DNA of 64,000 nucleotides from Callorhinchus milii (taxonomy: Eukaryota), in the NCBI RefSeq assembly GCF_018977255.1, contig NW_024704742.1:77006001-77070000 (forward strand), in the 5' to 3' direction. Every line of letters begins with the position of its first letter. Within the stretch, counting starts at the first letter, position 1. The notes beneath the pieces were generated by a model, which was not told the origin of the DNA, did no database searches, and was given only the letters and a program-made list of their open reading frames with translations. Below are positions 2,493-64,000 of the stretch, piece after piece. A program made the position numbers and the translations under genes.

Positions 2493-4142
2493 AAGTCAGA
2501 AGAGAGATGGAAAAAATAGCAATTATTTGTTGTGGTGGATAGTGTGAACACCTTGAGTTGGTTTTAGCTGTTTCTAAATCACTTTCCTCTACTTCACAAG
2601 CTACCACAAAGAATATCAATAACATTGGCACAATTTTAAAAACTTATAAAAAGCCATAGAGTACAATCTACCATTCATAGTTATTCTGAACAAGTACCAC
2701 CTGCTTGTTCCACTCTGGAAGTGTGGAATGATTCATAGAAATTACAGAACAGAAGGAGGCTATTTGACCCAGCAAGCCTATGCTGTTGCTAAATTTCCCA
2801 GTGGGGCTATTTATTCTAGTTCCAGTCTTCCAGTCCATCCCCATACTCTTTTTATATTGTCCCTCTTCAAATGTTTATCAAATTCACTTTTAAATGTTAT
2901 GGTCTCTGCCTCAATAACAAGTCATTGGATGTTCTAATAACCCTCTATGTTAAAACATAATCTTCCCCCCTAATTCTCCCAGTGACTACCTTTAGTTTAT
3001 GCCTTCCCCCACCGCCCCATTCCCAATTGTTAACCAGCTGGAAAATCTGCTGGAATTTTGGAGACCTCTATTGGATTTGTTTCTGTGCTCCAGTAAAAAT
3101 GGTCCTATTGAGTTCATTCACTCATACTGGCTTATGTTAGGAAAACTCACTTTTATATATCTTTTGTAGCTGTTTTTTAATGGATGTTTGTTCTGTCTTT
3201 TTGCTTTATAGGTCAAAATGTGCTCCAAATGCCCCTTTACAAATCCAAACCGACATCAGGACACAAAGGTTTTATTTTCCTGATTGTAAGGAGAGGTGCC
3301 TGAATTGAAATTGATTTGTATTTCTATTTCAGTCTTAGGTAGGGTTAAAGATGACAGGAAATTATTTTGTTTTATCAAATCATTGTGCAAACAAGCATTC
3401 CTGGTGACCCACATGTCCTGCTATGTGTGCTTTCTACTGCCTGAGGGATTTGTGGCATTCCGCAGAGGGGACCAAGGAATCCACCATGCCTGGATTGAAG
3501 GGGGCTGGCAAAGGCTTATAATTGTCATGGTTGGAAGAATGCCTTTGACCCAATTGCATCTGTATAGTTTCCTTGTCTGGAATGCAAAGAGCTGAGGGCA
3601 GATTGTTCTTCTCAAGTGTATAGACTAAGCTATTAACTTGACAACCATTCAGGCTGTTTGTTGTGCCAGTAAGTTAACTCAGATACTGCTGTCTTGCAAG
3701 ACCCTAATGACAGGACACCACTTGCGTGTTTAGGCTTAGCTCTTCAAATTGATATTGTCATCTTCGGCAAAGTACAACAACTGCTGATGTTCAATTTAGA
3801 CTAAAATCTAAAAAGTTGAACTTCTTTGCTGATTAACTGAATCTCATCAAGTCTGTTTTTGGTTGGAGAGAGCATATAAAAAAAAGTGGAATTTGGGGTC
3901 CAATTTACTACAAACATGGGGTCTAAAATTTACAGTTTTTAATTTAAATCCAGTGCTCATTCAAGGAATATTGTAAATTCTATTTTATTTCAATCCTTCA
4001 CATAAAAATTGATTTCACTTCAAGGCTGTTTGTGGGACATTGCTGTGTTCAAAACTAGCTGTCGCATTCGCCCATGAATACAGGAGCTACACACTACAGT
4101 AAATCCTGTGAAACACTTTGATATGTTTCGATGACGCTAGAA

Positions 4143-23612: not shown

Positions 23613-23935
23613 ACAGAGAATATTTGGATCCCAGTCAGAATCAGGAATGCTTTTCCCAACCAACCCCCAAAGGCCACTTTCATGGCTATGTTCATCCTGG
23701 AGGTGGATCAGTTTATCCTGACTTCCTTGACAACGGGGACCTGGATGGTGAGGATAGCGAGACCCCTAAGGCCCAGCTTGTGTTCAATGTAACCAGACCA
23801 CCTCCGCAGGGCTACATCACTCACTTGTCCGACCACACCAAGCCAATCACGTCATTCACCTGGAGCGACCTGAATGAGCTGCTCATAGCATATCAGCCCC
23901 CAAACAGCAGTCACACTGAGAGAAGGAACTACGAG
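23613..23935 (+). CDS. FREM1: FREM1 coding exon 5 (TENIWIPV...[12 protein letters not shown]...ERRNYE) with apparent 1-nt frameshift
   Basis: Phase 0 at both ends but 323 nt long; FREM1-like sequence switches from ORF 23586..23792 to ORF 23555..23959 near 23735-23741. Confidence 0.92.
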
Positions 23936-43999: not shown

Positions 44000-44041
44000 G
44001 TAAGTAAATAAAACAATAATGTTGTTTATATTATGTGTATT

Positions 44042-44465
44042 AGCCTGGCTCAGTGGTAGCACTCTCGTGTCTGAGTCAGAAGTTGTGGGTTCAAGCCTCA
44101 CATCGGGACTTGGAATCACATACTCTAAATGGACACACCAATGTAGTTCTGGGAATGTATTGCATTGTCAGAGGTGCTGTCCTTCAGATGTGATGTTAAA
44201 CCGAGGTCCTATCTGCTTGTTCATGTGGATGTTAAAGATTCCGTGGCGCTATTTGAAAAGAGAAGGGAGTTTCTCCCGGTGTCTTGGCCAACAACCCCCC
44301 CAAATAAATAATTGGTCACTCACTCCATGGCTGTTTGTAGGACATTGTGTGCAACTGGTTGCTGCTATACACTCAATTCCCCTTACAGTATATCCTGTGA
44401 AGCGATTTGAGATGACTTAACAACTTGATAAGGCGCTATATCAAATGCAAGGATTTATTATTATG
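44042..44465 (+). mobile_element. Full-length family A Deu-domain tRNA SINE (best copy; further copies at ~1500, 5155, 5825, 11770, 27130, 33195, 36700, 44815, 45995, 50215, 51685, 53320, 59180)
   Basis: tggctcagtggtagcac...ggttcaag head, Deu core as recalled for SacSINE1/AmnSINE-type elements, L2-like tail. Confidence 0.88.
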
Positions 44466-45604
44466 TTTTCCTGTTTTAATGTATTTGGACACATCTGACA
44501 TTGCCTGTTTACATTCACCAAACAACCTTTGCCTCTAGAAGAACATTATACTTCTACAATCCCCCATTCCCAATGTTGAGGATTTTTTTTGAAGCTTAAA
44601 ATATTTTGGGAGAAATTTGCAGCATGTTGTTTTTCATTTGATGCAATAAATATGCCCCAACACAATGGCACCCAGTGACAGTTTAGACATGGCTCAAAAT
44701 GTTTACATTTAATCATATGGAGCTGGAGTGGGGAGACTGTAGGGTGCCTGTTCTGCATGCGATCAGATGAGCCAAATGCCCTTATTCAACCAAATTAATC
44801 TTGTGATAAATAAATAGTAATCCTTGCATTGATATAGCACCTTTCACTTTGGGAGGACATCTCAATTGCTTTGTGGAATATACTGTAAAGCGTAGTGACG
44901 GTGTGTTTTGTAGGCGAAAAAGGCAATTTGTGGACAATAATAACCATGAAGTGAATGATCAATTTCATCTGGAGGATTGCCAGTCAGGACACTGGGAGAA
45001 ACTCTCTTCTCTTTTCAAATTGTGCCGTGGGATGTTTAACATCAGACAGACATGACCTTGGTTTAACACCTCACCTGATGGATAGATGTGTTTAATATAT
45101 ATATGCACCATGAAATGATGTAAATTTCATTTCTATTTTTCAACCTCCCTTGTATGATCTTTCTGTGCCATATGGAATCCCCAGGTGAGGAGTTGGCAGG
45201 GTATGTGGTTTGTACCTTTTCCCATGGCAGGAGTGGTGCAGTCACATCACCACTATACCTATTCAATTTGAAGAAGTGATGGGAGGATGATAAAGTGGGA
45301 ATGAGATCAAAAGGGCCTTTTTTATCTGAACCTGTCTTGTGATCTTGTGAGGTCTGTGGAGTCCTGGCCTGTATGACCTCCTCAGTGATCCACTGGTTCA
45401 GTACCCAGATATAGAAATCAAAATACAGGCAGTTCAGTTGCATCTGTGTCCCCGAAGAATCTGCACTGACTGCAATTTAGCAACACAAGAGGACATTTCA
45501 CTGGTGAGGGTGGTCTGAGAACCAATCAGAACATTTGGTTATATAGTATTTGGGAGCAAATAGTGAGCACCTTCCTCTTCACCTTCTGTGCTGCCTCATT
45601 CCAG

Positions 45605-49719: not shown

Positions 49720-51255
49720 GTCAGCGACAGTGTTTCAGGATTTAAAGTTTCCCAATCTGATACAAGTCAGAGGCTCATAGTATATCCTGTGAAGCGTTTG
49801 AGATATCCTACTGACACTTTATCAAGTTATCAAGGTCTTCTAAAATGCTTCACAGGATATACTATGAAGTGCACTATGACTGTTAAAAGCAAAAATGATG
49901 ACTTTTCTATTCTGAGGGAGAAACCTTTCTTCTCAAGTCAGACATGTGTTCAGTCCCGAAGCTGATGTTAGAACCAATTGAACGGAGATAGGTTTTTAAC
50001 TTGAATTTCTGCCCTATTCCCTAATCTCAAGACCCTTCTCTTCGACCGTGCCTTTGGTCTCCCTCCCACCTCTCTGCCTTCACTCACCCCTAGAAATGTA
50101 ATTTTGTTGTTGTAATCCATTGAAACTAATTGGGGGGAAAAGAATGTTTAGGAAAATCTCAATTTTTACTCCATAAATGCAGTTGACTTGCATGATTTGA
50201 ACAACTATGATACTATAATAATATTCCTTGCTTTTGATATACCTTATATTGTCGATGTTTCAAATTGCTTCACAAGATGTATTGTAAAGTGTAGTGACTG
50301 TATTTTGTGTGCATAAACCGCAATAAGTGACCAATTTAATTTGGGGGATATTTAACCAGGGTTCTGGGAGAAACTCCCTTTTCATTTGAATAGTGCTGTG
50401 GGATCTTTAACCTGAACAGGCAGACAGGATCTCAGTTTAATGTCTTATCTTAAGGAGCTACACCCCCAATACTGTATTAGAGTGTAAGCATAGACTCTGT
50501 GAATTCCCATACTGACACAGGAAGAATGTCTACTGAAAGCAAGCATCCAGAAAGCAGACTGGAATCACAGTAGTGAAACAAGAAACATCTTAAATAAAAC
50601 AAAATAGTAGAAATTATTTTAATAGTGATATAGTAAAAGTCTTACCTTTATAAATCATATAATTGCCTAAGTTCCACATTCATCCAAATCCGATTCAGTT
50701 TCCTATGAAAACCACAAAGATATATTTGCACTATTCTCCTAACTCATAACACTACTCCCTACCCTTCATTACTCCTGCACTACCCAGCTGCATTGAACCT
50801 TGATCCATTGACACATGCGCAGAAGGACTTAAATTTCCTGCAATTCAATCCATTCCAATTCTTGCCAGTAAGTGCGCATGTGGCGATGGGTCAAGATGCA
50901 TTGTATCTCGGAAATCTCCGGCTGCATTAATTTACACAGGTGCTGTGTAGATTATTGATTAAATCGGATTTTCTACCACTTAGTTGAGGTCTCAGAAGAC
51001 CTCAACTAAGTGCTACAAACCAGTTTGCCTGAAACTTGGACTTGGTGTAAGTCACATTAAATGTTATGGTCCCGTGTGATACGACTTAGGTGAGTTTTAT
51101 TGTAGTGTTTTCTGTTTGTCACTTCCATTCAATATAAAATGTTGGTTAGTATTGCTTAGTGCACAAGAAGCAGACTTTCTTCTGTTTGTCTTTTTCTTGG
51201 TGTACAATTACGATAGAAGTTTCCTGGTTTATTTTGACTTTGTTGTTTCCCTCAG

Positions 51256-51451
51256 GTGGGCAACAATTGGATACCTCTGAATCCAGCAATGAACTGGAGT
51301 CAGGACGACCTGGACATGAATCTAGTGAGATACGTACACACTGGAGCACTGGGTTCAAAGGACCAGGACAGGTTTAGTTTCCATCTGTCAGACGGTGATA
51401 ACCGGTCACCAGTGCATCATTTTTATGTCACCATTAGGAACATGGAAAAAG
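51256..51451 (+). CDS. FREM1: FREM1 coding exon 22 (VGNNWIPL...IRNMEK)
   Basis: cctcag| and G|gtacat, phase 0 to 1. Confidence 0.95.
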
Positions 51452-51807: not shown

Positions 51808-52286
51808 GTCTACACTGACACTCCAATACAGAGCTGGATGTGTACTGCCTTATTGGAGTTTCCATCCTTCAGATGAGACGTTAAACTAAGATCCCTGCCT
51901 GTCTGCCTGTCTGTCTCTTCAGATGGACGTTAAAGACTGCAAGGCACTACCTGAACAGAGAAGGGAATATCTTCTGGCATCCTGGCCAGCAATACTCCAA
52001 ATAAAATTGTTACTCACTCTATGGCTGCTTGTAGAACATTGCTCTGCACATAATCGCTGCTGAATTTACCCACAAAATACACAGTCGTGTCACTTTACAG
52101 TAAATCCTGTGAAGAATTTTAAGGCATCTTGACAATGTGATAAGGCACAATATCAAATACAATAATTATTTTTATCATAATATTAAACGAATTAATTAAT
52201 TATCAAGCTGTGGCTTTCAGTGATTGGAAACAGAAGAGCTGGCATCACTTTAATAAGGATTCATTTGACCTTGGTTACCTTTCTAG

Positions 52287-52551
52287 GTGAAATTGCAGTG
52301 TTTCTCAAACCACTTGCCCTTGCCAAGGGAGGCCGAGGCATTCTGACTACAGCCGAACTCCTTGCTGCCGATGGCACTGATAAACCCGAAGAGCTGCTAT
52401 ATGTAATAACAGCCCCGGCAAAATATGGACAAGTGGAATACATCGGTCACCCTGGATTAGTAATAACCAGCTTCACCCAGATGGACGTAGCGGCTCAGAC
52501 AGTCTGTTACACTCACAGCAGCAAGGCGGATGTCACAAGAGATTCATTCCG
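52287..52551 (+). CDS. FREM1: FREM1 coding exon 23 ([10 protein letters not shown]...TRDSF)
   Basis: ttctag| and CG|gtaaga, phase 1 to 2. Confidence 0.95.
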
Positions 52552-54569: not shown

Positions 54570-56540
54570 ATGGGGGAAGCATAGTAGTTGAATAGGAAGG
54601 TGATTGAAGGCTGGAAAGTAGGGAAGGGAGTAGGGCTAAAATGCCTCCATTTAGTATGCCACAGGGATCCATGTTGGGGCCTCACCACTTTTCCATTATA
54701 TCAATAACCTGGATATAGGGGGTATGGAATCAAAGTTTGCAGATGATACCAAGCTACGAAGTATAGTGATTAGGGTGGCAAGAGACCAAGAGAATTTAAA
54801 CAAATTATTGGAATAGGCTGATCAGTGGCAAATGAAGTTTAATGAAACAAAATATGAGGTGATTCATTTTGGTTGAAAAAAACAAGGGAATATATATTGA
54901 ATGGCAGTAAGAAGCTGAGCCGCAATGGGATTTGGGAGTCCAGGTATAGAAGTCATCGAAAGTGACATTGCAAGTGGAAAAGGCTACAAAGAAAGCTCAC
55001 AGCATGCTGGGTTTTATATATAGGGGCATAGAATACAAAAGCAAAGCAATAATGCTAAGTTTGTACAAGTCACTGGTTAGACCGCGTCCAGGTTTGGGCA
55101 CCTCACTTCAGGAAAGATGTTAAGGCCTTAAAGAGTGTGCAGAAGGAGTTCAGTAGAATTATTATGGGATGAAAAGCTACAGTTACGAGGAGAAATTGGA
55201 CAAGCTGGTCTGATTTCATTGGAGTAATGACCGATATCCTGACAGCTGCCTGTCTGACATTGAGTCCTGGACGAGAGACAACTTTCTTCAGCTCAACGTG
55301 CGTATAACTGAGGCCCTCCTGATTGGCTCACGTCAGCGCCTCCGCACCTCAGGCGCTGACAGCATCAGCATCCAAGGCTGCACTCTCCACCTCTCAAAGC
55401 CAGTCAGGAACCTCGGTGTTCTGTTCAACCCTGAGCTGTTCTTTCTCCCTCATATCCGCGCCACAACTGGCACCGCCTTCCATCACCTCCGGAATATCGC
55501 CAGACTACGGCACTACCTCACCCCTCACGCTGCTGAAACTCTGCTCCACGCCTTTATCACCTCAAGGCTGGACTATGGGAACTCTCTCCTCGCCGGCCTT
55601 CCCGCCACCTCCCTCCACAAGCTGCAGGTCATTCAGAACTCTGCAGCTCGTGTACTGTCCCGCACCAGGCTTCGTGACCACATCACTCCCACCCTCGCTC
55701 GCCTCCACTGGCTCCCCATCCCCCAGAGGATTGAATTCAAGATCCTCATCTACAAAGCCATTCACAGCCTTGCTCCCTCCTACCTCTCTGATCTACTAAC
55801 CCCCTAATTATCTGCCCGTACCCTCCGTTCCTCTGGCTCCGGTCTGCTCCACATCCCCCGCCCCAACCGCCCTACCATCAGTGGCCGGGCCTTCAGCCCC
55901 AAAGCTCTGGAACTCTATCCCCCAGTGCCTTCGCCTTGCTTCCTCCCTTTCCTCCTTCAAGGCCGGTCTCAAGACCTTTCTCTTCGACCGTGCCTTCAGC
56001 TCCCCTCTCGACTCTCTACCCCCTCCTCGCTCCCTCCCTTCCCTCTCCTCACCCTGACCATTTCCCCCCTACTCGGGTCCTGACCCAACTGTACAACGCC
56101 TTGGCACGTTCTCCCGACGTGAAAGGCGCTCTATAAATGGAATCTTGTTGTTGTCTTGTTGTTGTTGGAGTAGAGAAGGTTGAACCGGGTGTGAAAGACA
56201 AAGTTGTGCAAAATTATGAAGAGACAGGGAGAAGTTATTTCTGTTGATATAGTCAGTGACTTGATGACATAGTTATAAGATAGCCACAATACCAGCGAAA
56301 GAAGAACTTAGGAGGACTTTTTTCACCAAGCCGAGTTGTTGGGATGTGGAATGTCCTGTCAAGTAGGGTCAGGTACCATTGTAGCTTTGAAGAGTGAAGT
56401 TGACATGACTGTGAAAGAGAGAAGCTTGAAGGGGTATGAGGCAGGGCAATGGGACTGAATCAATCTCCTTATTCTGTGAGCTGGTGTGGACAATATGGGC
56501 CAGAAAGCCTCCTTCTGCGCTGTGGATTTCTATATTTCCT
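54570..56540 (+). mobile_element. CR1 LINE fragment (54570-55226 and 56165-56540) split by an L2 insertion
   Basis: PQGSMLG, KFADDTKL, LYKSLVRP motifs; sequence continues across the insert. Confidence 0.88.
55227..56164 (+). mobile_element. Young 5'-truncated L2 LINE with 8-bp TSD ttggagta
   Basis: ORF 55298..55807 (SRLDYGNSLL...LHWLPIPQRIEFKIL), 3' UTR and (TTG)n tail. Confidence 0.93.
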
Positions 56541-58215
56541 TTCTACTGGATACCCATAGGTGCTCTGGATGTCAGCCTAATGGCCTGTAATTTAAAATAA
56601 AATGGAAGAGTATTTATTAGTCCTGTGTTCAATGAGCTATAACTGGTTTTGGACAGTTTTTTTCTTCCGCCCATACACACTTCTAAGATCATTTCCCTAA
56701 TTATTCTTGGATCCATTTAATTTGCTCCAGATGTTTTATGATCCATTATTTTTACTGTCATTTCATTATTCTCCTCTATTTTCCATGACCTTGGGTACAT
56801 TTCTCAGATGGCAACTTTATTAAAACTAGAGTAACTACTGCCTATTTTTTCTGCTGTCAAAGCTTTCACAAGAAATAATCTAAGATCTACTAATTATAAT
56901 ATTACTATACTAATAATAATCCTTGCATTTTGATATAGCGCCATATCACGTCTTTGAGACGTCTCAAAGCACTTCACAGAATATACTGTGAAATGAATTG
57001 ACTGTATATTTCATGGGCGAAGCATGGCAACCAATTTTGCACAGCAGTGTCCCACAAACAGTCGTGGATTGAGTGACCAATTTATTATTTTATTATTGTG
57101 CTAGATTCATCACCTAGCTGTACAACATACCTAGACTTACTATAATTAATATATATAACTGATAGATGTATGACATTAGATAATACACTAATTGTACAAT
57201 ATGAAGAAATGACAAAATTGTACCATATCTATATGAATTGTTGACATTAAATTCTGGGTGAAGGATTGAGGTCCACAATATAGGATACCAGAAGAGTGGA
57301 ATGGCCAAGGTATTGGCAAATAATCATTTGATGGCAAAGTTGGATGCTAAATTGAGATTATTGGAGGAGGGAAATACTGTGCTGTGAAAAAGTAAAGGGT
57401 TCACATCTTTAAGGTCTTGGGGAAAAATGTATTAGAGTAGGAGCCAGGGCCTTGATTTTTACGTAGTAAGGAAGGATAATAAGTAGATGCAGGGAACATG
57501 TAGAGTACCATACATATGGAGTTGGGGAGGAACAAGGAAGGAAATACATAGGTCAGTTCGAAGATTCATGCCTCATTTCCTGTGATTGTTTTTTTACTGC
57601 TTCATTGAGTTCTGTTAATGAACTGTTTGTTGGAATGGCATATTTGGGGCATGGATTAATTCCTGTTTTAACAGAGACCTTCTGGTTTACAGAAAAAGTG
57701 TAGATTGCAGTTGCATATTTGGGTGTAATTGTTTTCATTTCAAACAATAGCATCTGTAGACAGTTAAAATTATATACCTTGAAGCTTAATTATTTGGTCT
57801 AGATTTTTCATATAAATCAATGAAATCCAGCTAGAATAACTATTTGAGCATAGTTTGAACAACCTTCTATTACTCTAAGACAAGTAGCAAATCAACAAGT
57901 GTTTTTTTAAATATATATTTTTATTATGTGATATAAATGCAGGAAGCAGAGTATTTGAATTTTAACATTTGGTGATTTTAATACATCAAGAAAAGTGGTG
58001 AATAAGATTTTTTTTAACTATCGATAAAAAGGAGCTGCAATAAATGGTGTAACTTTATAACACACCTGTTGTGAGATTGGTAGCAATGTTTTGTCAATGA
58101 AAATAATCATTTTAGTCCCTTTGCACAGAGGCTTTGTTTTACTTGTATTTACAGAGCAAGTAGGACCAGAATCCCTGTTAAAGGTGTGTATTATTTTATT
58201 CTTTCATTTCTGTAG

Positions 58216-58271
58216 ATGGTGAATCAAGAAAACATATTGAAGGCTGCCTTGCCTTTGACTCTCTTTGCCAG
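58216..58271 (+). CDS. FREM1: Putative alternative 5' extension of exon 24 giving a TILRR-like short FREM1 isoform (MVNQENILKAALPLTLFAR)
   Basis: Acceptor ttctttcatttctgtag immediately followed by in-frame ATG; peptide resembles recalled human TILRR N-terminus MVTQESMLKAALPLFTR. Confidence 0.75.
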
Positions 58272-58686
58272 ATTCATTGTCAGCAATGGGCTGTCCAGCA
58301 GAAACGGAAGCTTTGAGATCATCATTGAAAACGCTGATCGTACCTTGCCCACCCTATCGAAAAACCAGGGGATCCATTTGGTTGAAGGTTCCATGATTGT
58401 CATTGCCCCAGAAGTGCTACATCTGTCTGATCCTGATACTCCATCCAGGAATCTGACCTACATCATAGCACAGCATCCACAGTATGGGCAGCTCTATCTC
58501 AGAGGGACCGTTCTTCAACAGGACAACTTCACGCAGTTGGACATTGACAATATGGATGTAGCTTACAAACATGGTGGAGGGGATTCACAGATTGACAGGT
58601 TCACCTTTATAGTCTCTGATAGGAGCAACCAAGGCTTCCTGGTCAATGGAAAGATGCAGACTGAGCCAGCTACATTCACAATCGAG
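58272..58686 (+). CDS. FREM1: FREM1 coding exon 24 (FIVSNGL...PATFTIE)
   Basis: ttgccag| acceptor phase 2; GC donor GAG|gcaagt phase 0. Confidence 0.94.
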
Positions 58687-59577
58687 GCAAGTAACTAGAG
58701 ATTATTATGTATTTTTTATAAAGAGCATACCTCAACAACATACAGTAAACTGCAGATAATTTAACACTCTAAGGGACAAATGACCAGTTATCCCGAGTGG
58801 CAAGTTAGGTAAATGTATAAATACATAAATAAACATGTCAGGTATATTGACAGCCTGATGATTTAAATGGTAGTGACCAGTTAAGCCAGGGTCCAGTTAT
58901 CAAGAGTTTACTGTAATGTGTCTGGTGCAACAGTAGAGCACAGAATGAGGCTATCAGAGGCTGAACCTTCCCATGGTTGAGGTTTGAACTCTGGCTTCCT
59001 CCAGTGTATATTTTGATGGGGAAGCACTGAGATTGGGGGAGAGAGATGTTCTCAAGAAGAAGCATTGACCATAAATGTGGATATTCGCACTGAGACCATT
59101 CTGATGTCTATTCTCTTTCTGAGGTAGCTCTCTTTCACCACCTCAGAAAGAGAATAGACATCAGAATAGACATCAGAGTTAAAACCAAGTACCTAAAACC
59201 TGTTCAGGTAGACATTATAGATCCCATGGCACTATTCAAAAAAGAGAAGGGAGTTTCTCCCAGTCTCCTAGCCAACACTTCCCAGATTTAAAAACACAGT
59301 CATTCACTTCATGACTTGATGGGACGATGTTGTGCAGAAATTAGCTGCTGGTTTGCTTACAAAATACGCAGTCACTACACTTTACAGTAAAGTCTTGTGA
59401 AGCACCTTTAGATATCTGGATGACGTGATAAGGCGCTATATCAAATGAAAGGATTATTACTATTATTATGGTTGCTTGTTGGCTAAAAATACCTTAATAA
59501 TAGATGTCTCACTTTAACATGTGAATGAAAATGACCTGTAAGAAGCAGTTTGAAGCTAACATCTTACCTTTGTCCAG

Positions 59578-59779
59578 GTGGACTACGTGGACAAGGCTGC
59601 CCCAAGGATAATTTACCTTCGATGTCCATCAAAAGTTGACGTTTTGAAAAATGGACGATATGGAATTTATATCTCTTCTCGATCCTTGAAGGCATCAGAT
59701 ATTGACAGCAAAGATGAAGAGATTATTTTCCGCATCCTGAGCCCTCCACTCTTTGGGTACCTGGAAAATGTCACTAGCG
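59578..59779 (+). CDS. FREM1: FREM1 coding exon 25 ([10 protein letters not shown]...YLENVTS)
   Basis: gtccag| and G|gtatgc, phase 0 to 1. Confidence 0.95.
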
Positions 59780-60922
59780 GTATGCTTCTAACTCATTTAA
59801 TAGCTTTATTCAGCCTTTATCCATTTTTACTGCCATATCTTTAAATACTCTCCAGTATTTATACTGGGCTCACTAGGTGCTGTGCACACACTTTACATTT
59901 CAGTTTTGGAAGTTTTTCTTAAAAACATTTTGGTAACTTTTGTTTGAATTGTCGTTTGTCAAAGGTTTATAAGTCAACTTAAAGTTCCCTAAAACCGTCT
60001 GAATTGCTGAAAGATTAACCTTAACCTGCAAACCTGTGGGTACCATTCCTCTGTACTTTCAACCAATTTAAAGTACAAAATATCTATTCATAATAACTGG
60101 TAGGGTTCAGGGTTCTGGGTGTTTTCCTGCCAATATAGTTCTTACAATGCATGGTAAACCACCTGCATAATACTGTTTTAAAGAAAAACTTAAAGACGTG
60201 TTGTAAGAAAGATATTCTGTAAGGCTTTTCTACTGAGACGGGAGCCAGCAACTGAGAGTAATATAGTGGCTCTGCATTTGCCTGGAAAATATGCAATCGC
60301 ATATGTGATTGTACTGTCAAAAATCAAGTTGGGTGGCCTTTACAAAGTCAATATTTTTACTAGGAATCTGAGTAGGAGTTTATTTTTAAATGCAAAATCT
60401 GAACTTTTAACGTAGGATCACAGAATAGCACAAAACAAAGGAACTAATGAAAGGTTGACCAATGCTGCAGTGTGATGAGAGCAGACATGCAAGAAAAAAA
60501 CTGTAAAAGTTATATTGGGTGATTGGTCATGGAGGGTGGGCAAAGCACCTTGATACTAGTTAGCTTTGATTCTGGTCTTTTTCCCAGTTACATGGCAGCT
60601 ATGAGAGTAAATGTTTTAAGAATTTATGTAGATAAGTGCACAATGCATCTAACCTCATGCAAATACAAAAAGATGTATATGTTTGCACTCATGCACAAAT
60701 GGCACTGTGTCCCATTGCCATGGCTTCGACTGATCCATCTCCAAGGAGGGTTTGTTTCAAGTAACTGCAACACTGGGAAATTTAGCCTCTTTTCATTATG
60801 GACTACCTGCTGTGATTATGCTCACCTCTGAATTCAAACTCATCATGTCATTGCCATACAAACTACTGTTCACACCTTCATGGAAAGATTAATCTTGGTG
60901 ATGATTTATTCCTGTTCTTTAG

Positions 60923-61067
60923 GAGGATTCATTCATAATACGTTCACACAAAGGGACCTGAATAGCAAGACCATCCTTTACATCATTAACCCCTCTGTGG
61001 AGGTGACATCCGACACTCTGGAATTTCAGGTTTCAGATCGCACAGGAAACTCGGCCATCCCTCAAAT
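60923..61067 (+). CDS. FREM1: FREM1 coding exon 26 ([16 protein letters not shown]...GNSAIPQ)
   Basis: ctttag| and AT|gtaaga, phase 1 to 2. Confidence 0.95.
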
Positions 61068-61474: not shown

Positions 61475-63360
61475 CTGTTCTCCACCACCAACCGGCTCAT
61501 CTACCCTCCCTGCCATGCCTCGCAGATGCTTTCCTCTGACTCTCACTGCAAGAAAATGCTGGACTTCCTCAAGTCCAAAATCGAGGGAATACGTTCAGCT
61601 GCCACAGCCCTCACAACTTCCAACCCCTCCCTACCCTCCCCCACACAATTACCCATCTGAAAATTACCCATTCCTCCTTCCACACCTTTGAACCTGTCAC
61701 CACCTCCTCTGTCTTCACCACCGTAACCTCCATGAAGCCCACCACCTGCTCCCTGGATCCCATCCCCACCCCTCTCCTTAAATCCCAGCTCCACCTCCTT
61801 GCCCCACTACTCGCTGATATCATTAACCTCTTCCTGTCATCTGACACTGTTCCTTCCCCCCTCAAAACAGCCATTATCATTCCCACCTTGAAGAAACCTT
61901 CCTTTGACCCATCACAGCTATCCAGCTATTGGCCCATCTCAAACCTCCCTTTCCTATCCAAGGTCTTGAATGAGCTGTTGCCTCCCAGATTTACTCTTTT
62001 CTTGTCTCCCACTCCCTCCAAGCGCCCCTCCAATCGGGTTTCCGTGCTGCCCACAGCACGGAAACTGCTCTGGTCAAGGTCACAAACAACATCCTGACCA
62101 TGTGTGACCAGGGCTCCCTGTGCTTCCTCATCCTCCTCGACCTCTCCGCCGCCTTTGACACCATAACCACTCAATCCTCCTCCACTACCTCTCCTCCCAC
62201 CTCAACCTTCAAGGTTCTGTTCTTGACTGGTTCAGTTCCTACCTTTCACACCGCCTCCACTTCGTCGTGGCAAACAGCATCTCCTCCAGCCCCCGCATGT
62301 CTCATGCAGTGTTCCTCAGGGCTCTATCCTCCGCCCCCTCCTCTTCACCCTCTACACACTCCCCCTTGGTGACATCATCCGCAGACATGGGGTAAATTTC
62401 CACATGTATGCGGATGACACCCAACTCTACCTCTCTGCCTCCACCCTCAACTCCAGGACTACTGACGTTCTGACCGACTGCCTGTCTGACATCAAGTCCT
62501 GGACGAGGGACAACTTTCTCCAACTCAACGTCAGCAAGACCAAGGCCCCCCTGATTGGCTCATGCCAGTGCCTCCGCACCTCAGGCGCTGGCAGCATCAG
62601 CCTCCATGGCTGCACATTCAACCTCACTAGGCCTGTCAGGAACCTGGGTGTCTTGTTTGACCCTGAACTGTCCTTTCTCTCCCACATCTGTGCCATGACC
62701 GGCACTGCCTACCACCTCCGCAACATTGCCAGACTCCGCCACTGCCTCACCCCTCAGGCTGCTGAAACCCTCATCCATTTGTCACCTCAAGGCTCGATTA
62801 CAGGAACTTCCTCCTCATCGGCCTTCCCAACTCTTTCCTTCACGACCTGCAGATCATCCAAAACTCTGCAGCTCGTGTACTCTCACGCACCAGGTTCTGT
62901 GACCCCATCACTCCCACCCTCAGAAGCTGGGCAACACTTTAAACAATTCACATCAGATGTTGTACATTAAATTGCTAGTTCATTGCAAGTAACATAGAAT
63001 TTACTCTGAGTTGGTACTGTTTTTGCCTGGTCCTCACCTTTAAAGCCCTCCACAGTCTTGCTCCTTGCTACCGCTGTGACTTCCTAACCTCCTACCAACC
63101 TGTCCACTCCCTCCCCTCAACGGACTCCGGCCTGCTTCACATCTTCCGCCTTGCCCGCCACACCATCGGTGAGTGTGCCATCAGCCTCTCTGCTCCCACC
63201 CTCTGGAAATCCATCCACAGTCCCTCCCCCTCCCCACTCCCTTGCCTCCTTCAAGACTTGTCTCAAGACCCTCCTCTTTGACCGTGCAGTCAGTCAACCT
63301 CCTACCCCCACCCTCCCCATCCTCTACCCTGGTGTTGAGAGTGGGATGGTGAAGGTGAGA
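61475..63360 (+). mobile_element. L2 LINE RT fragment (61475-62920) plus separated 3' end (63040-63360)
   Basis: [38 protein letters not shown] motifs with frameshifts. Confidence 0.92.
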
Positions 63361-64000
63361 GCAATATGAGGATGATGCTCGTGCGGTGAGAGGGATGCTC
63401 TTGGTCCAGACCATTCAACTAAAAAAAGCAATGTTTTCTCCTGGATTTGTTATGCATGTGTGCAGAAACTGTGACACAACTGTGTACATTTTGGATATGT
63501 GGAAGATTTGAGACCTGTTTTTCCAATAATACTTTCAGCCTCCGGCCCTTTTTCCTGTGGTTTACCATCTGTTTAGTAGGCAGCTGAAATGTCAACATAT
63601 CACACCTTGCACAGATATATGCAAGGGAATGTCACCTGCAGTGGCAACAGCATTCAGGGGCAACGGGGAACAAAACATGTTCATTCTCCAACACCTTTCA
63701 GTTGACCGACAATTTGACCTATAATAAAGGAAACTTCTCCTGCCCGGTTTCAATGTGTCTACAAATCACAAAGCACTTTGCTCACAGACCGAGTCATCTC
63801 CAAATCACAAATTATACCCTTTTAATTATACATTCAGTTGTACATTTATTCAATTATGTAAAACCCGATTCTTCAAGTGGATATGCCTTTGGTACTTGCC
63901 ATTTACTCTGCTTTAATTCTTAGTAGTGTGACAAGAGTATATGCTTTCTGCACTGTTGTTTTGCAGTCTCGAACTCAAATGGTCTCGTATTGAAATGGCA

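Follow-up and report, generated by a model that had tools for sequence, protein, structure and literature searches.

When did the start of TILRR, the short isoform 2 of FREM1, arise, and what does the DNA that encodes it do outside the tetrapods? The question is raised by the FREM1a locus of Callorhinchus milii (elephant shark, here the chimaera), of which we analysed a 64-kb stretch (the window; 77006001-77070000 in a 991-Mb assembly). Hudson et al. 2012 (PMC4009816) described a "5' TILRR CDS" (coding sequence) as a stretch in the intron before human exon 25, located it in 33 of the 37 tetrapod genomes they searched but in no teleost out of five, and preferred to place its origin within the tetrapod lineage; their survey did not extend to cartilaginous fish. 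A 2021 review (PMC8346017) repeats this account, and our literature search returned no paper tying TILRR to cartilaginous fish and, among the papers listed, none on FREM1 in chimaeras or other chondrichthyans. Here we argue that positions 58176-58271 of the window are probably an ancient, nucleotide-conserved alternative 3' splice-site module of FREM1, orthologous to the 5' TILRR CDS, used as a switch, already present in the jawed-vertebrate ancestor and since lost from those ray-finned fishes that were sampled. Exons "23" to "27" follow the mouse-type numbering of an initial annotation of this DNA; mouse exon 24 is human exon 25.

The sequence before exon 24 reads ...ttattttattctttcatttctgtag/ATGGTGAATCAAGAAAACATATTGAAGGCTGCCTTGCCTTTGACTCTCTTTGCCAG/ATTCATT..., with slashes at the two acceptor borders. 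The upstream acceptor (AG 58214-15) is preceded by a tract with 17 of 20 pyrimidines and directly followed by an ATG (58216-18), which an in-frame TAG (58213-15) abuts on its 5' side; no AG occurs between 58184 and 58213. The canonical acceptor is the CAG at 58269-71 (AG 58270-71; tract with 16 of 20 pyrimidines), and the extension lying between the two, 58216-58271, is thus 56 nt long. It translates as MVNQENILKAALPLTLFAR, in frame with the FIVSNGL... of exon 24, and its 3' half also serves as the pyrimidine tract for the canonical acceptor. The seventh codon, ATA, encodes Ile; a whale shark and a ray-like contig have Leu there. When exon 23, which ends in phase 2, is joined to 58216, the long frame reads ...DSFRW-stop (CG/A TGG TGA, or R W stop; TGA 58220-22). 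Two additional codons of the cartilaginous-fish extension stem from a 6-nt insert, TTGACT (58253-58258), which forms a perfect branch-point-like UUGAC 13 nt before the canonical AG and is not in the bird sequence used for comparison below.

Both acceptors are seen in RNA contigs. Four RNA-like runs (X1-X4) from one study were examined; their RNA label is a guess, and as the contigs skip introns at exon borders they were treated as cDNA (complementary DNA). Exon junctions were taken from the table of contig pieces; the table of joints holds at least 656 entries, mostly repeat-derived. The canonical junction lies in X2 record 11, which joins five exons (51254-51449, 52285-52550, 58271-58684, 59576-59778 and 60922-61067). 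In X1 record 5 (4757 nt), 52285-52550 (contig 3515-3780) is directly continued by 58215-58684 with 0 mismatches. Because one ambiguous G (52551 or 58215) was assigned to the right-hand piece, the true junctions are 52551/58216 and 52551/58272. X3 record 15 begins at 58215, with 26 further letters placed elsewhere, X3 record 12 ends two letters past exon 23, and X4 record 25 begins at 58271; in X3 and X4 these ends fall where an assembly graph would branch, were both forms present. The upstream AG is a genuine acceptor used in RNA, the partner seen is coding exon 23, and in the chimaera this use truncates FREM1. The initial annotation was right about the second acceptor with its ATG open into exon 24, about the frame that is lost after exon 23 and about the 3' part doubling as a pyrimidine tract, and the RNA junction ending at 58216 that it proposed to look for exists (X1 record 5, 52551/58216). 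A non-coding first exon, without which it held the extension not to work, finds no support: the only junction seen in the listed contigs joins a coding exon, and gecko isoforms do likewise.

In RefSeq, truncated FREM1 isoforms of two geckos, Heteronotia binoei (X1/X2, XP_060093251/2) and Paroedura picta (X4/X5, XP_077201208/9), have the endings ...DTFNRW and ...DTFKW, where the long isoforms read DTFK/F; the endings NRW and KW imply tandem acceptors of the form YAG/ATG. As in the chimaera, the same preceding exon is joined to the upstream acceptor, and the tryptophan and stop lie inside ATGGTGA. The geckos differ in having two tandem acceptors (...NRW and ...KW), whereas the chimaera has TAG/ATG alone, and in a length of ~1476-1481 amino acids (aa) versus 1435 aa in P0002 numbering. 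The gecko isoforms are automatic gene models, and our literature searches, which concerned TILRR, found no paper on them. The arrangement has several marks of an alternative 3' splice site that brings a premature stop: both junctions occur in RNA, the upstream site leads to an early stop, and site and event are kept in distant species, with constraint on the nucleotides (below).

The extension matches the N-termini of TILRR. A search by indexed words through 5.8 billion proteins gave 90 matches, many of them 715-720-aa isoforms named "FRAS1-related extracellular matrix protein 1" from mammals, marsupials, birds, turtles, tuatara and squamates, which begin MVTQESMLKAALPLFAR/FI.. or MVNQEHMLKAALPLFAR/FI... 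Among 127 fetched database proteins, the core of the extension stands at the start of at least 56 (a lower bound, because the regular expression misses P0089) and internally in 6; it is absent from 65, mostly long isoforms. The chimaera extension is identical to that of turtle at 15/17 residues, macaque at 14/17, tuatara and Tasmanian devil each at 12/17 and whale shark at 14/19, and relative to the tetrapod forms it has a two-residue insert. Human isoform X20 (P0070) contains MVTQESMLKAALPLFTRFIISNGL, and Hudson et al. 2012 (PMC4009816) print the human N-terminus as MVTQESMLKAALPLFT followed by R17; both agree with the human TILRR start given in the initial annotation. An N-terminal peptide resembling MVTQESMLKAALPLF[AT]R is present in the chimaera, as is a 5' coding sequence in the preceding intron that is contiguous and in frame with the exon 24 homologue, by which TILRR is defined (Hudson 2012, Smith 2017). 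By sequence homology, the extension and the 5' TILRR coding sequence of tetrapods are orthologues.

TILRR itself (human NP_001171175, and mouse; PMC2844171, PMC4009816, PMC5582195) provides the closest comparison. Its start has the same place, before and in frame with the R/F-I-[IV]-S-N-G exon; its peptide pattern, MV.QE..LKAALPL..FAR, recurs in the chimaera; and the downstream domains (CSPG repeats, Calx-beta and C-type lectin) are the same. The chimaera extension differs in having 19 codons versus 17 and no Met7, and in being seen spliced to the preceding coding exon, the likeness to TILRR here being one of sequence. It also differs in where it is found: the literature places the element in tetrapods only, whereas we find it in chimaera, whale-shark and ray-like sequences.

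The wider distribution supports this. The EukProt model of the whale shark Rhincodon typus (P0115) begins MVNQKNLLKVALPLPLFVR/FIISNGLSTRNGSL, with FIISNGL directly after the slash, and two ray-like contig-derived proteins (P0114 and P0129; 83% identity to Mobula) begin MNQEHLLKAALPLTLFAR/FIVSNGLSTRNGTL, with FIVSNGL directly after the slash; the chimaera and these three proteins share the 19-codon form with the two-residue insert. Five single-exon models resembling ray-finned fish (P0122, P0123, P0144, P0155 and P0156) lack the extension, and their upstream residues are unrelated. One further candidate, P0154 (MLLYVFAR/FVVSNGK), carries at most a faint remnant and was set aside. When 1.84 billion cluster representatives were searched with the first 60 residues, the 14 matches added no further lineages: the carriers of the extension were all tetrapod-like, and no gar, bichir, coelacanth, lungfish or lamprey was among the matches. 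A word search limited to residues 1-40 (18 candidates, 2 matches) was uninformative. An exon of a FREM1-like paralogue in the chimaera (49% identity; G000:C5:2028821-2029240, L002) has no TILRR-like frame upstream of it; it is preceded by a low-complexity pyrimidine repeat that codes for serine, proline and leucine and stays open for 370 codons. As it is present in the chimaera, the whale-shark model and the ray-like contigs as well as in tetrapods, the element predates the split between cartilaginous and bony vertebrates, which contradicts the published tetrapod-only inference, and the sampled ray-finned fishes have lost it.

What kind of selection has kept this element? For a comparison of nucleotides we used L013, a metagenome contig with bird-like host DNA. 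In exon 24, chimaera and L013 agree at 103/138, 109/138 and 54/138 of first, second and third codon positions, a pattern that reads as the usual signature of a selected protein with saturated silent sites. In the extension the corresponding counts are 12/16, 16/16 and 15/16, with 45 of 50 aligned nt identical; third positions differ between extension and exon 24 at P=2.3e-5 (Fisher's test). The conservation reaches ~40 nt upstream of the ATG, as 28 of 35 nt aligned in 58171-58215 are identical (TAAAGGTGTGTA..TTTCATTTC.GTA.ATG); this upstream block is translated in the bird read-through models P0004, P0015, P0117 and P0119. The first 15 nt of the extension, the purine-rich ATGGTGAATCAAGAA, are the same in chimaera and bird. 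The similarity of the peptides is thus largely conservation of nucleotides—a frozen RNA or DNA element made of two acceptors and their tracts, probably with splicing enhancers—rather than a signal at the level of the protein. Frozen third positions make the likeness of the peptides weaker evidence for translation, or for a conserved protein, than it appears, and fit a regulated splice switch. The initial annotation had suggested that this immune isoform may go back to the jawed-vertebrate ancestor; for the element this stands, given the chimaera, whale shark and ray-like contigs, and it has to be qualified for the peptide, whose match is in large part conservation of nucleotides.

Folding of the module gave structures no more stable than those of shuffled sequences (z = -0.23 in the chimaera, +1.17 in the bird). 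A possible helix was observed all the same: the 10-11 nt that follow the upstream acceptor (G/AUGGUGAAUC) could form base pairs with the 10-11 nt that follow the canonical one (G/AUUCAUUGUC), namely 58215-58225 with 58271-58281 in the window and 2902-2911 with 2951-2960 in L013, looping out the extension. This helix is also in the centroid fold of the bird sequence, and the three differences on its 3' side (UU to CC, G to A) all preserve pairing. As a structure that might control the choice of acceptor it is only a lead, from two sequences compared.

The module would work as follows. It sits exactly where the N-terminal two thirds of FREM1 meet its C-terminal third. With the downstream acceptor (58271/58272), exon 23 would continue in frame, giving full-length FREM1. 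With the upstream acceptor (58215/58216), 56 nt would be added, and after exon 23 the long frame would close two codons later; the same 56 nt would supply an AUG whose frame continues through the exons that follow, those for the CSPG repeats, Calx-beta and the C-type lectin, and thereby a TILRR-type open reading frame. Whether the chimaera also has an mRNA without exons 1-23, in which AUG 58216 is translated into a protein of ~700 aa, is a nearly balanced matter on which we lean slightly towards no; the chimaera TILRR protein itself we infer. In amniotes such an mRNA is implied by P0107 and P0070, whose residues immediately before the Met are unrelated.

Several observations weigh against the TILRR side of this proposal. 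Among the contig pieces listed, 58216 is joined only to exon 23, none starting upstream in the intron, and no transcript with a separate 5' end that excludes exons 1-23 was seen in the listed contigs, which are by nature unable to show transcript starts, just as their depths are unable to rank isoforms. AUG 58216 would be out of reach for a scanning ribosome on any transcript that includes exons 1-23. Met7, given as the most potent start of human TILRR by Zhang 2010 (PMC2844171), is replaced by Ile in the chimaera. No short isoform of ~715 aa from a cartilaginous fish was among the database matches, and the ray ATG is uncertain, since the opening residue of P0114 may have been called from GTG. 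Four of the five chimaera-bird substitutions in the extension alter an amino acid and synonymous sites are almost frozen, and the open frame could have been inherited passively with the frozen nucleotides. Much of this would fit a module that in cartilaginous fish merely truncates FREM1 (1435 aa, without Calx-beta and lectin) or triggers nonsense-mediated decay, its open frame being a by-product and TILRR translation coming later, in tetrapods, aided by a new Met7; the lone exon-23 junction, the lack of a short isoform among the matches and the Ile at codon 7 would all be expected, as would third positions conserved at 15/16 together with ~40 nt before the ATG. Tetrapods with only Met7 in frame or with the Met1 frame lost (P0066, P0095, P0089 and the frame-shifted bird P0119) point the same way. 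However, the ATG and open frame are kept in chimaera, whale shark and probably a ray despite five residue changes and a length difference from tetrapods of 6 nt, which preserves the frame; the extension retains a hydrophobic core like the one in which Zhang 2010 (PMC2844171) saw a putative signal peptide, which also counts towards coding; and missing annotations or contigs are no proof of absence. A module limited to truncation is a real possibility, on balance rather doubtful.

Two other explanations concern the acceptor and the peptide. Hudson et al. 2012 (PMC4009816) interpreted the human and mouse loci as giving a TILRR mRNA that begins in the intron and runs into the exon, for which AG 58214-15 would be irrelevant as an acceptor. 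Such a start may still hold in other tissues, but it is very unlikely in view of contigs from two runs that break or join exactly at 58215/16 (X1 record 5 and X3 record 15), of a pyrimidine tract and AG that are conserved in the bird, and of gecko isoforms that employ the upstream acceptor. None of the contigs listed lies on 58008-58214, and the X1 depth of bin 58008-58674 (58.1) is accounted for by record 5, which alone predicts 83.2 x 470/667 = 58.6, so that nothing is left for 58008-58214. Moreover, Gekko P0107 and human X20 (P0070) have purine-rich or unrelated residues immediately before the Met, which the pyrimidine tract could not encode and which imply a spliced upstream exon in amniotes. 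That the peptide resembles TILRR by accident, as a pyrimidine tract can be expected to yield Leu, Pro and Phe codons, is an idea with practically nothing left to it: in a six-frame scan of the window with the 14-mer of the turtle short isoform, 58216 on the forward strand scored 12/14 and the runner-up 7/14 among 127,912 positions, which already refutes it, and neither the identical purine-rich start of the extension in chimaera and bird nor the paralogue tract without resemblance fits it. The reading we prefer remains the conserved alternative 3' splice-site module set out above.

SR-protein genes are known for alternative splice sites and "poison" segments of high conservation, through which premature stops are brought in. 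The FREM1 module is like these in being conserved at the level of nucleotides, including synonymous and flanking intronic positions, and in bringing an immediate stop on inclusion; it differs in that the segment, besides the stop, provides a start codon from which the remainder of the gene can be read in frame. Stop and start overlap (A-UGG-UGA / AUG-GUG-A), and one mRNA may hold two abutting frames, FREM1 1-1435 and a TILRR-type frame. A "gene-splitting" switch roughly 450 million years old, in which a ribosome ending at UGA 58220-22 restarts at AUG 58216, four bases back, and makes TILRR while bound to the endoplasmic reticulum, is a highly speculative idea that we think very improbable. If true, it would account for the identity of the first 15 nt between chimaera and bird, for a stop that in chimaera and geckos never lies more than two or three codons from the junction, and for the arrival at the cell surface of a protein whose signal sequence is weak. 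The UGGGA of a TURBS (termination upstream ribosome-binding site)-like motif is absent from the last 120 nt of exon 23.

The exons of the locus (Table 1) were placed by tblastn with the Callorhinchus FREM1a protein UniRef A0A4W3JEQ6 (P0002), to which exon 24 is 100% identical, and with a Mobula orthologue; for exon 23 the queries were P0002 and P0003. Exon 24 encodes a CSPG/Cadherin_3 repeat (Pfam PF16184, E=4.9e-25), and Cadherin_3 was also found on P0001. Exons after exon 27, through the end of the C-type lectin, are located in the next 15 kb of the chromosome. With the C-terminal third of the Mobula protein as query, exon matches downstream of the extension reach residue 646 of 647; the linker at residues 391-471, which is poorly conserved, has no exon match. 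CSPG repeats, Calx-beta and C-type lectin were all detected by Pfam in the turtle short isoform. The downstream chimaera frame was judged exon by exon.

Table 1. Features of the FREM1a locus around the alternative acceptor (positions in the window).
Feature	Position	Strand	Remarks
FREM1a exon "23"	52286..52551	+	Ends in phase 2 (...TTC CG); donor GT 52552-53; tblastn and RNA contigs X1 record 5, X2 record 11
Conserved non-coding block before ATG	58176..58215	+	Probable branch-point region, 17/20 pyrimidine tract, alternative acceptor TAG (AG 58214-15)
Alternative 5' extension of exon 24, 56 nt	58216..58271	+	Orthologue of "5' TILRR CDS" by sequence homology; ATG 58216-18; contigs begin or join exactly there
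Exon "24"	58272..58686	+	First exon common to full-length FREM1 and TILRR-type isoforms; canonical junction in X2 record 11
Exon "25"	59578..59779	+	tblastn, X2 record 11
Exon "26"	60923..61067	+	tblastn, X2 record 11
Exon "27", start	63967..64000	+	Continues past the end of the window

Three further observations concern the locus at large. The intron after exon 24 opens with a GC donor (GAG/GCAAGT, 58687-58692), and an identical GCAAGT stands near 3379 in the bird-like L013; by this comparison it is a GC-AG intron kept from chimaera to bird. The exon-5 frameshift of FREM1a mentioned in the initial annotation (23725-23755) falls within ...ACAACGGGGACCTGGATGG... in this assembly, which is apparently one base short relative to the TTGTLDGED reading of P0002 (Ensembl-derived) and Mobula; because the missing base falls in a run of a few Cs, a mistake of assembly and a true lesion are equally likely. 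The stretches 55300-57340, 44000-44700 and 62000-63300 have summed contig depths of 10^3-10^4, with loose ends and many joints between places; these are transposable elements or dispersed repeats within the introns of FREM1a that all four runs together show as expressed or abundant.

TILRR has been studied as an amplifier of IL-1 (interleukin-1) receptor signalling in atherosclerosis and in the acquisition of HIV (human immunodeficiency virus), and it is cited both as a co-receptor and as an "orphan" coding sequence born from non-coding DNA once tetrapods and teleosts had split (Hudson 2012, PMC4009816; repeated in PMC8346017). What is new here is that the TILRR 5' coding element occurs in a lineage from which published work excludes it, and the only use documented here truncates FREM1. 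Its presence in chimaera and whale shark reverses the published inference, pointing to an element ancestral to jawed vertebrates and lost in the sampled ray-finned fishes. The behaviour of this element as a splice module bears on how TILRR mRNA arises, and on how FREM1/TILRR knock-outs and variants near exon 24 are to be interpreted.

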